In this document: piece by piece, positions 10,050 to 12,102 of the stretch | How positions within the stretch are numbered: the stretch's first letter is position 1 | How the letters are laid out: each line of letters starts with the position of its first letter | Virus record (IMG/VR): IMGVR_UViG_2671180821_000008 | Location: 1 to 23,022 of that record | Source: a virus | Lineage: Duplodnaviria > Heunggongvirae > Uroviricota > Caudoviricetes | Strand: one strand, 5' to 3' | Length of the DNA stretch: 23,022 nucleotides | The notes under the pieces: generated by a model | The model's database searches: none | Seen by the model: only the letters and a program-made list of their open reading frames with translations | What the model was told of the DNA's origin: nothing | Program-made: the position numbers and the translations under genes

Positions 10050-11515
10050 TATTCGTACCCCTTATAATGGGGTGTTAGCCAGCCAGACCCGGCATGATTA
10101 CTGCCCCCAGTCGTCCATGATCCGGGGGGTGATGTCACCGGGTCTGGTGGGGCGCTGGTAACCGCTAATAGGGGTCAGGTCAGGCACTTTTGCCGGGACC
10201 GTCTGTAACGTGGATGCCGGTACCTGCTCCCCGTGGTTATCTGGTTAACCCATATACAAGGGAGACAGAATGACCGAATCCAGCGATTACGAATCCGTCC
10301 AGGTCTTTATCGGCGTTGATGTCGGTAAAGATACGCATCACGCTGTTGCCATTAATCGTTCAGGTAAACGCCTGTTCGATAAAGCATTACCCAACGACGA
10401 AAACAAACTCAGGTCGCTAATATCTGACCTGAAACAACATGGTCAGATACTGCTGGTTGTTGATCAGCCAGCTACCATCGGTGCGTTACCTGTCGCCGTT
10501 GCCCGCTCAGAAGGAGTCCTTGTCGGATACCTCCCTGGACTGGCCATGCGCCGCATAGCCGACTTACACGCCGGTGAAGCTAAAACTGATGCTCGTGACG
10601 CTGCCATCATTGCCGAAGCTGCCCGTACCCTGCCTCACGCGCTACGCACGCTGAAACTGGCTGACGAGCAAATCGCCGAACTCTCCATGCTCTGCGGCTT
10701 CGATGATGATCTTGCCGCACAGACAACGCAGGCCAGCAACCGTATCCGCGGCCTTCTGACCCAGATACATCCGGCACTGGAGCGCGTTCTCGGTCCGAGA
10801 CTTGAGCACCCGGCGGTACTCGATCTTCTCCAGCGATATCCCTCACCAGAAAAACTCGCTTCGCTGGGTGAGAAGAAGCTGGCAGCCCAGCTCTGCAAAC
10901 TTGCGCCTCGTCTGGGTAAACGCCTTGCAGCAGACATAGCTCAGGCACTGGCCGAACAAACCGTCGTCGTTCCCGGCACGAATGCCGCTGCCGTAGTACT
11001 GCCACGTCTGGCACTCCAGCTCATCACGCTGCGTAAGCAAAGAGACGAGGTGGCGCTTGAGGTAGAACAGCGAGTTCTTGCTCACCCTCTTTACCCGGTC
11101 CTGACCAGTATGCCCGGAGTCGGTGTCAGGACCGCAGCCAGACTCCTCACCGAGGTCGCCTGCCGCGCCTTCGCCTCTGCCGCACATCTCGCTGCTTATG
11201 CTGGCCTTGCGCCGGTAACTCGGCGATCCGGCTCGTCAATACGCGGTGAGCATCCCTCGCGACGGGGTAATAAAGCTCTCAAACGGGCGTTGTTCCTGTC
11301 GGCCTTCGCCGCGCTCAGGGATCCGCTCTCCAGGGCTTACTACACCCGCAAAATGAGTCAGGGAAAACGACACAATCAGGCGCTTATCGCCCTGGCGAGA
11401 CGACGCTGCGACGTTCTGTTCGCCATGATGCGCGACGGGACTTTTTATACCCCGCAGGGGTCATAACATGCTTGACAACTTAATAGGGGCACCCCCCCGA
11501 CAGACCTGTGCTATC
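10050..11515 (+). mobile_element. IS110-family insertion sequence (boundaries approximate)
   Basis: GC-rich block containing a DEDD-type transposase with a roughly 200-nt structured non-coding leader; IS110-family elements lack inverted repeats, so ends cannot be fixed from sequence alone. Confidence 0.45.
10270..11466 (+). CDS. IS110-family transposase (DEDD catalytic domain plus Transposase_20-like C-terminal domain)
   Basis: 398-aa ORF; N-terminus VQVFIGVDVGKDTHHAVAIN (RuvC-like DEDD start), C-terminal ...MPGVGVRTAARLL... helix-hairpin-helix and ...VTRRSGSSIRGE... serine motif; GGAGACAGA SD before ATG. Confidence 0.85.
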   Translation: MTESSDYESVQVFIGVDVGKDTHHAVAINRSGKRLFDKALPNDENKLRSLISDLKQHGQILLVVDQPATIGALPVAVARSEGVLVGYLPGLAMRRIADLHAGEAKTDARDAAIIAEAARTLPHALRTLKLADEQIAELSMLCGFDDDLAAQTTQASNRIRGLLTQIHPALERVLGPRLEHPAVLDLLQRYPSPEKLASLGEKKLAAQLCKLAPRLGKRLAADIAQALAEQTVVVPGTNAAAVVLPRLALQLITLRKQRDEVALEVEQRVLAHPLYPVLTSMPGVGVRTAARLLTEVACRAFASAAHLAAYAGLAPVTRRSGSSIRGEHPSRRGNKALKRALFLSAFAALRDPLSRAYYTRKMSQGKRHNQALIALARRRCDVLFAMMRDGTFYTPQGS

Positions 11516-11553
11516 GGAAAGAAAAAAGGCCATCAGCAAAACTCTGATGGCCT
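11516..11553 (-). terminator. rho-independent terminator-like hairpin (minus-strand orientation)
   Basis: Perfect 10-bp stem AGGCCATCAG / CTGATGGCCT with 7-nt loop; on the minus strand it is followed by TTTTTTCTTTCC. Confidence 0.4.
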
Positions 11554-11597
11554 GAATCACCTTTACCAATATTGTATGAAAAAACACGCACGACTAA

Positions 11598-11626
11598 TTG
11601 ACAATAATTTTCATTTCCATTAAAAA
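11598..11626 (+). promoter_or_regulatory. candidate sigma70 promoter (consensus -35 TTGACA, 17-bp spacer, weak -10 TAAAAA)
   Basis: TTGACA at 11598-11603; spacing to TAAAAA at 11621-11626; would drive an approximately 100-nt transcript ending at the 11663-11727 terminator. Confidence 0.25.
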
Positions 11627-11662
11627 AGATCGCGTAGCATTCTTAATTCATGAGGAACTTTA

Positions 11663-11727
11663 CCCGCCAGCAATCTGAGTAGCGAAAGCTGTTCATCCCC
11701 AATGTTTTTGCTGGCGGGTCCTTTTTT
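11663..11727 (+). terminator. rho-independent terminator-like structure (plus strand)
   Basis: 11-bp perfect stem CCCGCCAGCAA (11663-11673) / TTGCTGGCGGG (11708-11718) followed by TCCTTTTTT; long internal loop. Confidence 0.4.
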
Positions 11728-12102
11728 CTACGGTCCTCCTCCCCGGAGGGGGGCATTTCATTATTTTTCTAATCGTTACTGGTGAGAAGGCGGAAGAAAA
11801 AGCCAGTTCTTCGCCCCTAAATAACAGCATGATTCCAGTCCATGCAAAATCTGATTTCCAGCTCACACATACCGAGCACTGTACAAAAAACCGCCAGCCA
11901 AGGCAGTTAAGAGTGTGTTCCCGGGGTTTGCTTAGAATATTTTGTAAGTTGTCCGAAGAGATATTTACAACACCAGAATGATGCATTATCAGTCCCCTGC
12001 CAGAGGTTCACTACGTAACCTGACCGACAATGAAGTGGCACACTGAATTTGGCCACCTGAACAGAGGTGATATGCTCACCTCAGAACAACACAGGTGCTC
12101 CA

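Follow-up and report, generated by a model that had tools for sequence, protein, structure and literature searches.

What is encoded, if anything, by the non-coding DNA that lies between two insertion sequences in a decayed lambdoid prophage? The window analyzed here, a stretch of 23,022 nucleotides from a caudoviricete virus record (IMGVR_UViG_2671180821_000008), contains such an island of about 560 bp. The original prediction placed two terminator-like hairpins and a short plus-strand transcription unit in it and left two readings side by side: a small RNA (sRNA) or attenuator-like element, or the late promoter/terminator region of the phage that survived the loss of Q.

By synteny with relatives, positions 11492-12030 of the window are prophage DNA, and the same synteny shows them to be the spacer that precedes the lysis cassette. 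In uninterrupted relatives, this spacer has a tRNA array or a methylase on one side and the class II holin gene S (minus strand) on the other, so that the prophage reads Q ... tRNAs ... spacer ... S-R-Rz, its late genes being transcribed from the minus strand. In the window, it is isolated on both sides by an ISEc20-like IS110-family element and by IS911 (Table 1). Relatives free of the IS110-family element join window position 10042 straight to 11492, and the end of the element matches annotated ISEc20 at 93-100%. On the other side, the match to the relative L001 ends at 12032, and window 12031-13280 occurs as a separate element in L014 and L016. Both flanks had been recognized correctly, except that the IS110-family element ends at 11491 and not at 11466, which is its transposase stop. 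The insertion parts the S start codon (10030-10032) from its Shine-Dalgarno run; in L001, the holin coding sequence begins 6 nt left of the base aligned with 11492, and tRNA-Gly/Thr/Arg/Ile genes lie 135 nt past the base aligned with 12030. The window has no tRNA gene anywhere and no Q gene beside the region, and its prophage is heavily rearranged. The GC content of the region (0.40-0.47) is below that of the neighboring IS (0.58-0.63), so that the island is AT-rich as described, to a moderate degree only. Between 11000 and 12500, six terminator-like sites are observed versus 1.8 ± 1.4 expected. The spacer carries two elements that point apart, a terminator on the minus strand and a candidate unit on the plus strand.

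Table 1. Features in and around the spacer (window coordinates).
Feature	Position	Strand	Description
ISEc20-like IS110-family element, right end	11467..11491	+	Boundary, outside the prophage module; whole element about 10043-11491
Holin S translation-initiation remnant	11492..11516	-	G-rich Shine-Dalgarno run
Intrinsic terminator, late strand	11517..11553	-	10-bp stem, 7-nt loop, U6CUUUC tail; just upstream of S
Candidate sigma-70 promoter	11598..11626	+	-35 TTGACA (11598-11603), 17-nt spacer, -10-like TAAAAA (11621-11626)
Predicted RNA, ~95 nt	11630..11727	+	AU-rich single-stranded 5' part, branched hairpin 11662-11719, U6 11722-11727
10-codon ORF MRNFTRQQSE	11650..11682	+	ATG 11650, TAG 11680-11682; judged non-coding
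GC-rich hairpin, weak T-rich tail	11733..11754	+	Not conserved; stem destroyed in 85-87% variants
Conserved block	11791..11867		Mean pairwise difference 0.126; right edge of the shared module
Weak terminator-like hairpin	11880..11908	-	7 bp including one G.U, then U6; window-type-specific segment
IS911, left end	12031..12040	+	Boundary; IS911 is 1,250 bp, to about 13280

The minus-strand terminator, predicted at 11516-11553, is present there. It is built from a perfect 10-bp stem, AGGCCATCAG/CTGATGGCCT (11527-11536/11544-11553), that is followed on the minus strand by TTTTTTCTTTC, and it folds with a ΔG of -17.3 kcal/mol (z -3.2). In the prophages PP2 and PP5 of E2348/69 and in NU14, a hairpin with a U-run is found at the same place, with changed stem sequences. 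Holin-bearing variants of the spacer all have the identical terminator. The remnants on plasmids and pathogenicity islands that lack the holin depart from it at 7-10 of 37 positions, including stem mismatches on ColV-type plasmids and on a pap-linked island without S. The hairpin probably belongs to the control of the late operon, as a terminator just upstream of S and not as tR'. Some 25 nt separate it from the S ribosome-binding site downstream; its structure is evident, and its role can be proposed as follows. In the lysogen, transcripts that run on from the tRNA/moron region would end at this site before they reach the holin, which would shield the lysis genes, and Q-modified RNA polymerase coming from PR' would ignore it.

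On the plus strand, the consensus -35 hexamer is found where it had been placed. It agrees with the consensus at six of six positions, and the -10 element at four of six, without the conserved final T, which is why a simple promoter scan does not call the site. A single TTGACA within 564 bp is not improbable by itself. The hexamer, the 17-nt spacing, and TAAAAA are kept together in 13 of 14 unique variants; in the fourteenth (L052), the upstream DNA is replaced and this promoter is not retained. Transcription is predicted to start at about 11630-11634. The hairpin that follows has fully complementary 12-bp arms (11662-11673 and 11708-11719), which enclose 34 nt with an 8-bp inner helix, and it is succeeded by CC and the T-tract. 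The terminator proposed at 11663-11727 is therefore real as a hairpin with a T-tract, with a stem of 12 bp instead of 11. Its folding energy is -28.8 kcal/mol (z -4.99; 0 of 200 shuffles fold as well). For a terminator, it is unusually long and branched, with the U-run offset by 2 nt. The plus strand alone provides a U-run after the hairpin and forms the inner helix, which contains two G.U pairs. At the level of sequence, the features of an Hfq-binding 3' module are found: ACUUU, a hairpin with a 12-bp stem, and CC-UUUUUU.

The spacer module is widespread. Its core (11492-11867) occurs in about 27% of complete Escherichia coli genomes, on chromosomes and on ColV-type plasmids. Nine genomes match at >99%, flanked on the left by the holin, which adjoins directly, and on the right by the tRNA array, and variants of 85-87% identity are found in 1,451 of 5,426 complete E. 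coli genomes, at 948 chromosomal and 643 plasmid places. Homology to all of the latter stops at about 11867, a mosaic joint that marks the right edge of the module. Among species-representative genomes, the module is present only in E. coli and Shigella flexneri, the three other matches being chance 20-mers. Deposited phage genomes match only the IS end and a 45-nt stretch, and so, as far as sequence searches reach, prophages and plasmids are the only known carriers of the module. It adjoins iss on hundreds of ColV-type plasmids, and one relative lies 2 kb from papI. Among its carriers are IHE3034, APEC O78, APEC O18, PMV-1, and S. flexneri SFBU1023. In 87% relatives, STnc100 and a PapR-like 3' end adjoin the module, the latter about 260 nt downstream of the plus-strand unit; this end is missing from the window-type prophage.

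Variation within the module was compared across variants that are few (5 independent from BLAST) and close to one another (85-100% identical; Escherichia and Shigella only), and whose low divergence could partly reflect history and not selection. Variation is lowest in the promoter core and in the terminator hairpin. In the hairpin plus tail, 6 of 69 columns vary (mean pairwise difference 0.04), and in the -35 to -10 core 5 of 29 (0.086), compared with about 35% of columns in the flanks (0.13-0.26); the difference between hairpin plus tail and flanks is significant (Fisher p about 1e-5). The 34-nt interior of the hairpin is conserved as well (4 of 34 variable, p 0.006), a feature that a terminator alone would not require. 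Variation within the module peaks in the segment 11731-11790. The plus-strand unit is nearly intact on the ColV-type plasmids and the pap-linked island that lost S; an A.C mismatch interrupts the hairpin stem of the plasmid variant that occurs most often. Compensatory changes are found in 0 of 26 pairs, the stems being simply invariant, so that it is thermodynamics and conservation only that speak for the plus-strand structure.

Coding potential was rejected for every frame that was considered: no conserved ORF is found in the region, in agreement with the claim that it holds no credible one. The 10-codon ORF exists as described, and no Shine-Dalgarno sequence precedes it. The 87% variant retains the start and stop of this ORF, and each of the three codons in which it departs from the window is a non-synonymous change (R/K, F/H, S/P). 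ORFs of 97 and 51 amino acids were discarded as genes since indels break both in relatives, and the 64-residue "hypothetical protein" that PGAP annotates in some relatives lacks a start codon in the window and is cut short there by an early stop. A promoter-like site on the minus strand (11788-11760) was likewise dismissed; it is not conserved, being disrupted by indels in relatives, and chance alone would produce about one site of this kind. The weak hairpin at 11880..11908 (ΔG -10.7 kcal/mol, z -1.4) does not stand out from chance; in relatives, its position is downstream of the tRNA array.

The closest parallels to the plus-strand unit are the prophage sRNAs PasA and PasC (EcOnc51/52), which are found in EPEC E2348/69 and EHEC. 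PasA is an Hfq-dependent RNA of 85 nt that has been confirmed by Northern blot (PMC8550237 table S6; bioRxiv 10.64898/2026.05.13.724894); forms of 85 and 236 nt are listed (PMC8550237 table S6), and it is reported to be processed from a longer transcript. PasA, PasC, and the window unit all occupy the spacer before a class II holin-lysozyme operon on the opposite strand, and the position that characterizes PasA/PasC is thus also that of the window unit. All have a late-strand terminator on the holin side, just upstream of S, and all combine an upstream TTGACA with a 3' stem-loop that has a GCCAGC/GCTGGC core and a poly-U tail. Their sizes are similar (79-85 nt compared with a predicted ~95 nt). 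They differ in the hairpin, which is simple in PasA/PasC and 58 nt long and branched in the window unit, and in that expression and Hfq binding have been shown for PasA/PasC, whereas the window unit is known from its sequence. Homology between them is not significant by any of three methods. The PasA/PasC family is delimited by blastn with at least 75% query coverage, and blastn at word size 7 gives no match between the window unit and PasA/PasC. Smith-Waterman alignment yields p 0.17-0.23 against dinucleotide shuffles, compared with p = 0 in 2000 shuffles for PasA versus PasC. With a covariance model (CM) of the window unit, scores of 11-12 bits (E 5-8) are obtained for PasA, PasC, the PapR 3' end, and a further unit that resembles PasA, and unrelated terminators score alike. 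PasB was set aside as a counterpart, as it sits among tail genes in an unrelated slot.

PapR of UPEC UTI89, a homolog of the sRNA from the E2348C_1409-1408 intergenic region, takes the same slot and orientation in NU14 as the unit does in the window: the gene is flanked by the tRNA array/methylase and by the class II holin of a lambdoid prophage and runs antisense to the late genes. PapR is about 170 nt long, is activated by LRP, and represses papI (PMC4546395). The module relative near papI suggested that the window unit might be PapR itself. The published primers for the 5' and 3' ends of PapR, however, find no match in the window with up to three mismatches; PapR is another sequence and a neighbor from the same slot. 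Taken together, the plus-strand unit appears to be a positional and architectural counterpart of PasA/PasC and PapR, to which sequence kinship is not detectable.

This part of lambdoid prophages has other occupants as well. In EHEC, small Hfq-bound RNAs are encoded at conserved positions between Q and the lysis genes, and convergent sRNA genes occupy the moron site that follows PR' (PMC4104026). AgvB and AsxR of EHEC Sakai (Rfam models RF02702 and RF02703) share the niche Q ... morons ... lysis genes with the window unit (PMC4104026) and are anti-sRNAs of 51-60 nt with a conserved 42-nt 3' region. STnc100 (RF02076)/PasD is a prophage sRNA of the same region between Q and S that occurs twice in NU14; it is transcribed from the late (minus) strand, is about 200 nt long, and is absent from the window and from window-type relatives. 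The covariance search that had been suggested as a check finds no Rfam (15) family that reaches its gathering score in the region, with AgvB, AsxR, Esr41, STnc100, IsrK, and C4 included; at E <= 10, the region yields weak terminator-type matches on the minus strand and no plus-strand match. Elsewhere in the window, sok (20094-20269) is the only element to pass a gathering threshold. A further analogy is offered by nmpC of the K-12 prophage DLP12, which stands directly upstream of essD and is transcribed away from it from a promoter in the shared spacer, like the window unit. It is, however, a porin gene of about 1.1 kb. Together with lc of PA-2, and with the ipeX 3' UTR, nmpC represents reverse-oriented morons upstream of S; ipeX reportedly sits at the far (Q-proximal) end of nmpC. 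The genomes listed as matches to the module do not include K-12, and an identity of the unit with IpeX was rejected, as the K-12 locus has nmpC and not the module upstream of essD.

Which explanation fits these observations best? The strongest competitor holds that the plus-strand hairpin is a mere insulating terminator against antisense or IS-derived transcription that runs rightward into the tRNA/Q region, and that no functional RNA exists. TTGACA would then be fortuitous or inconsequential, and the module would consist of two opposed terminators around the lysis cassette. Both hairpins are thermodynamically strong, each with a U-run on its own strand, and the poor -10, the missed promoter call, and the lack of covariation in the stems are all compatible with this explanation, as is a CM that scores any terminator with an AU-rich lead-in equally weakly. 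It leaves unexplained, however, the conserved hairpin interior and a TTGACA that is invariant at a fixed 17-nt spacing in the variants that keep the promoter. Nor does it predict that the unit is retained where the lysis genes are gone, and the 85-87% relatives have no annotated plus-strand gene within 300 nt upstream whose transcription would have to be stopped. We regard an insulator without further function as rather unlikely, though it deserves to be taken seriously. Less probable still is that the conserved sequence acts on the minus strand in a long 5' leader of the late S mRNA, perhaps as a processing, stability, or pausing structure, and that its resemblance to a plus-strand terminator is incidental. 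The outer 12-bp stem does form on that strand too (-27.4 kcal/mol, z -4.4), and conservation extends as one block over all 350 bp of the module upstream of S, up to a sharp mosaic edge at 11867. The inner helix, however, is lost there because its G.U pairs become A.C, and the unit is conserved in remnants without holin or late operon, in which the terminator upstream of S decays.

The two remaining explanations also come from the original prediction, and neither fares well. A leader-peptide attenuator would use translation of the 10-codon ORF to govern whether transcription continues into the plus-strand sequence farther downstream. The 3' half of the ORF overlaps the 5' arm of the hairpin, its start and stop persist in the 87% variant, and the PapR-like terminator 260 nt downstream in 87% relatives makes a longer read-through RNA conceivable, comparable to the 85- and 236-nt forms of PasA. 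Against this stand the missing Shine-Dalgarno sequence, the exclusively non-synonymous codon differences, and the absence of a conserved gene after the ORF, the sequence beyond the hairpin being the most variable of the module; an attenuator is thus very improbable. The least credible alternative is a remnant of a PR'-qut-tR' late region that gave a transcript of the lambda 6S RNA or StxS type before Q was lost. The rearranged state of the prophage, with neither an adjoining Q nor a tRNA gene in the window, would allow for it. In intact relatives, however, the region abuts the holin start codon, and Q-type genes follow 0.7-2.4 kb away, past a tRNA array (L001) or a methylase and about 1 kb of further sequence (L002, L007). 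PR'-tR' must, moreover, lie on the late strand beside Q, and the plus-strand unit points against late transcription. Only the minus-strand hairpin is likely to belong to late-operon control.

The explanation that we prefer, with moderate confidence, is a pre-lysis spacer with a late-strand terminator and a plus-strand candidate sRNA unit. Of the alternatives originally offered, it is the small RNA that is best supported, because the promoter/hairpin core is conserved and validated sRNAs (PasA/PasC, PapR) occupy the same slot in the same orientation. The unit is a plausible unannotated member of the class of sRNAs encoded in prophage moron sites, as judged from sequence. It would be a small, self-contained transcription unit in which a perfect -35 and a weak -10, 17 nt apart, drive an RNA of ~95 nt, whose layout of U-rich stretch, long branched hairpin, and U-run would be that of an Hfq-binding sRNA. 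Such an RNA would be made in the lysogen and act by base pairing. Its targets may be host or prophage mRNAs in trans; of necessity, it would also be a perfect antisense RNA to the part of the late transcript that lies 110-210 nt upstream of S. We found no paper that describes the plus-strand unit, and a study of outer membrane vesicle (OMV) sRNAs on hlyF/iss plasmids gives Rfam predictions only and does not mention it.

The comparison points to a general rule of architecture for these prophages, in which a late-strand terminator directly upstream of S is followed by a small unit that faces outward. After loss of S, the terminator decays and the small plus-strand unit does not. A bolder possibility, which we put forward tentatively and with some doubt, is that the unit represents a new prophage sRNA family, without sequence kinship to PasA/PasC, PapR, or any Rfam family, that is kept on virulence plasmids and islands for the trans regulation of host or virulence mRNAs; its seed could lie in the conserved C-rich internal loop or in the AU-rich 5' part. 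Should no RNA be made from it, the region is simply prophage spacer DNA of the ordinary kind. If true, a new sRNA family would be present in about a quarter of sequenced E. coli and in Shigella, and would have been kept beside iss on ColV-type plasmids and on the pap-linked island after the lysis genes were lost. In pathogenic E. coli, the sRNAs of the Q-to-S moron slot (AgvB, AsxR, PasA-D, PapR, and STnc100) rewire the virulence and the regulation of the host, and their catalog is drawn from a few strains (Sakai, E2348/69, and UTI89). The unit is a candidate regulator on a major virulence plasmid family, has no Rfam entry, and can be tested cheaply; as a further sRNA of this slot, it would extend the catalog to ExPEC, APEC, and Shigella.

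The stretch 11492-12030 is the isolated pre-holin spacer of a decayed lambdoid prophage. It matches nine complete E. coli chromosomes at >99% identity and, at 99.8%, the genomes representing the species E. coli and Shigella flexneri. GC content in the region is 0.40-0.47, compared to ~0.6 in the neighboring IS. RMDEC465, an uninterrupted relative, has a class II holin whose start, on the minus strand, is 6 nt to the left of the base corresponding to 11492; lysozyme and Rz follow, and the right side holds a tRNA-Gly/Thr/Arg/Ile array on the minus strand and, beyond it, nin-region genes. 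This gene order makes 11492-12030 the spacer immediately preceding S in the late operon, and late transcription of this prophage is on the minus strand. The window harbors no tRNA gene. Six terminator-like sites lie in the surrounding 1.5 kb, with 1.8 expected. All elements listed in the original prediction were recovered at their positions (see table); its boundary for the IS110-family element had to be moved, as the element ends at 11491 and not at the transposase stop.

Coordinates of the features in and around the pre-holin spacer of the window
Feature	Position	Strand	Remarks
Holin S start codon	10030-10032	-
ISEc20-like IS110-family element	10043-11491		Lies in the C-run separating the Shine-Dalgarno sequence from the holin start codon
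Minus-strand terminator	Stem 11527-11536/11544-11553	-	Perfect 10 bp, 7-nt loop, then TTTTTTCTTTC on the minus strand
-35 TTGACA	11598-11603	+
-10 TAAAAA	11621-11626	+	17-nt spacer from TTGACA
10-codon ORF	11650-11682	+
Plus-strand hairpin	Arms 11662-11673/11708-11719	+	12 bp, perfect; 34 nt between the arms
CC and T6 tail	T6 at 11722-11727	+	3' of the plus-strand hairpin
IS911	Begins 12031

The class II holin S ORF (9748-10032, minus strand) is truncated at its 3' end by, and fused to, an IS2-type element (8504-9834), and its match to relatives ends at 9835. The lysis cassette, interrupted by IS at both ends, is therefore dead on both sides. The ISEc20-like element is flanked by 4 + 7 C's (flanks 10030-10042 and 11492-11498), compared with seven where the site is empty; the pattern resembles a 4-C duplication or a shared core. 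An ISEc20 flank in PPompW phages resembles 11492-11510, hinting at the same preferred target. IS110-group elements encode a bridge RNA in the non-coding stretch 5' of their transposase gene; here, 227 nt of non-coding DNA (10043-10269) lie 5' of it. S. flexneri SFBU1023 and E. coli ECMA0423 possess the same remnant; both lack the IS110 insertion, and their segments are arranged and oriented differently (compared for 5629-7762, 9943-10042, 11492-13988, 15658-16922, and 21302-22567). A 1.26-kb element is duplicated at 15658-16922 and 21302-22567. The window probably derives from a Shigella-like genome that is rich in IS and was rearranged by them. The early region of this scrambled prophage has a full-length sok antitoxin RNA (20094-20269, plus strand; RF01794, 117 bits, E 2e-26), which indicates that a hok/sok type I toxin-antitoxin locus is located there.

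The minus-strand hairpin (-17.3 kcal/mol, z -3.2) precedes the S ribosome-binding site by ~25 nt on the late strand. A hairpin with U-run also occupies the equivalent position in prophages whose spacers are unrelated; there, the stem sequences differ and the pairing is kept (GCCGTCAGTG/CACTGGCGGC in PP2 and PP5 of E2348/69, GCCATCAGT/ACTGGTGGC in NU14). The hairpin is invariant among module variants that have S, whereas holin-less plasmid and island copies are changed at 7-10 of its 37 positions, stem mismatches included. Given what is established about Q antitermination, the hairpin would block lysogen-state transcription of the tRNA/moron region from reaching the lysis genes, and Q-modified polymerase would pass through it.

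The plus-strand unit consists of a candidate promoter and a predicted ~95-nt RNA ending in a hairpin with U-tail (-28.8 kcal/mol, z -5.0). The promoter scan passed over the TTGACA promoter because its TAAAAA -10 lacks the terminal T. Five independent variants were obtained from whole-module BLAST, and 14 unique ones after metagenome contigs were added. Both promoter hexamers and their spacing are kept in all variants but one, the contig L052, in which the upstream DNA is replaced. Hairpin and U-tail show the lowest divergence (6/69 columns variable, mean pairwise difference 0.04) and the promoter core is also low (5/29, 0.086), compared with 0.13-0.26 in the flanks (hairpin and tail versus flanks, Fisher p ~1e-5). 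The U-run 3' of the hairpin exists on the plus strand only, as does an 8-bp inner helix with two G.U pairs between the arms. The unit shows no covariation, its stems being invariant except in the most frequent plasmid variant, which has an A.C mismatch; the structure therefore has energy and conservation as its whole basis. In L052 (8773-8921, minus strand of the contig), unrelated sequence with its own TTGACA replaces the DNA upstream of predicted-RNA position +8, the RNA-coding part is unaltered, and 47 nt upstream the contig breaks off. Possible explanations are a natural promoter swap, an IS junction, and an assembly chimera. A further block, 11791-11867, is well conserved (e.g. CCCTAAATAACAGCAT, CAGTCCATGCAAAATCTGATTT). 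Within it, a small hairpin (11827-11845) retains its stem, in shifted register, in the 87% variant.

Whether the unit produces a real ~95-nt RNA appears evenly balanced; such an RNA would most likely be an sRNA of the Hfq type and, at the same time, antisense to the leader of the late transcript. The main alternative, that the plus-strand hairpin is merely an insulating terminator, seems rather unlikely: the 34-nt hairpin interior is conserved (4/34 variable, p 0.006), which a bare terminator does not require. Of the readings offered by the original prediction, the small RNA is the best supported; an attenuator is unsupported, as no Shine-Dalgarno sequence precedes the 10-codon ORF and every change in it among variants is non-synonymous. 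In both the window and the plasmid type, the reading frame annotated as a 64-aa "hypothetical protein" in some relatives is without a start codon and is stopped early; the region indeed has no credible ORF. A remnant of the late promoter/terminator (PR'/tR') region is likewise unsupported, given the chromosomal order of Q, DNA methylase, module, and holin in relatives.

The slot, orientation, and architecture of the plus-strand unit are those of a known class of prophage sRNAs. PasA (85 nt major, 236 nt minor form) and PasC (79 nt) of E2348/69 were mapped by Pearl Mizrahi et al. as Hfq-dependent, Northern blot-confirmed sRNAs (PMC8550237, table S6). Both loci adjoin the upstream side of a class II holin and are oriented opposite to it; as in the window, the equivalent terminator upstream of S precedes each sRNA, with TTGACA upstream and a terminator core of GCCAGC/GCTGGC. 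In the moron site downstream of PR', Tree et al. described sRNA genes in convergent orientation (PMC4104026). PapR, considered because one module relative lies near papI, was located via published primers (PMC4546395); in NU14 these place PapR in the interval bounded by the tRNA array and the class II holin, in antisense orientation to the late genes. They give no match in the window, so the unit is not PapR. In the 87% relatives, a PapR-like 3' end lies just past the module and converges on an STnc100 copy (in L002, 5447-5497, plus, and 5492-5680, minus). NU14 carries PapR at 3031-3207 (plus) and STnc100 copies at 3210-3419 and 3697-3887 (both minus). This convergence agrees with the sRNA pairs reported from EHEC prophages. 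Membership in the class has to be judged separately, and by sequence the unit stands apart: blastn at word size 7 gave no match to PasA or PasC, and local alignment to either was no better than shuffles (p 0.17-0.23; PasA versus PasC, p = 0). A covariance model of the unit scored PasA, PasC, and PapR at 11-12 bits, as it does any terminator. The proposed Rfam covariance search gave no match in the region, and the candidate is absent from Rfam and from the searchable Pas/PapR/EcOnc literature.

Of 5,426 complete E. coli genomes, 1,451 carry the core module (11492-11867) with 85-87% identity, and the sites amount to 948 on chromosomes and 643 on plasmids; it was not found in deposited phage genomes. 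Homology across types stops sharply at ~11867, a mosaic joint. ColV-type plasmids and a pap-linked island show the order iss, Rz remnant, module, IS, with holin and lysozyme absent. In the ColV-type plasmid L005, the module (4001-4344) adjoins an STnc490 match (RF01405; 3876-3997, minus), and Rz/Rz1 fragments lie beside it downstream of iss; this layout points to a mobile element as the cause of the holin and lysozyme deletion. The findings all fit known biology; the novelty lies in a candidate moron-site prophage sRNA that is widespread, including on ColV plasmids.
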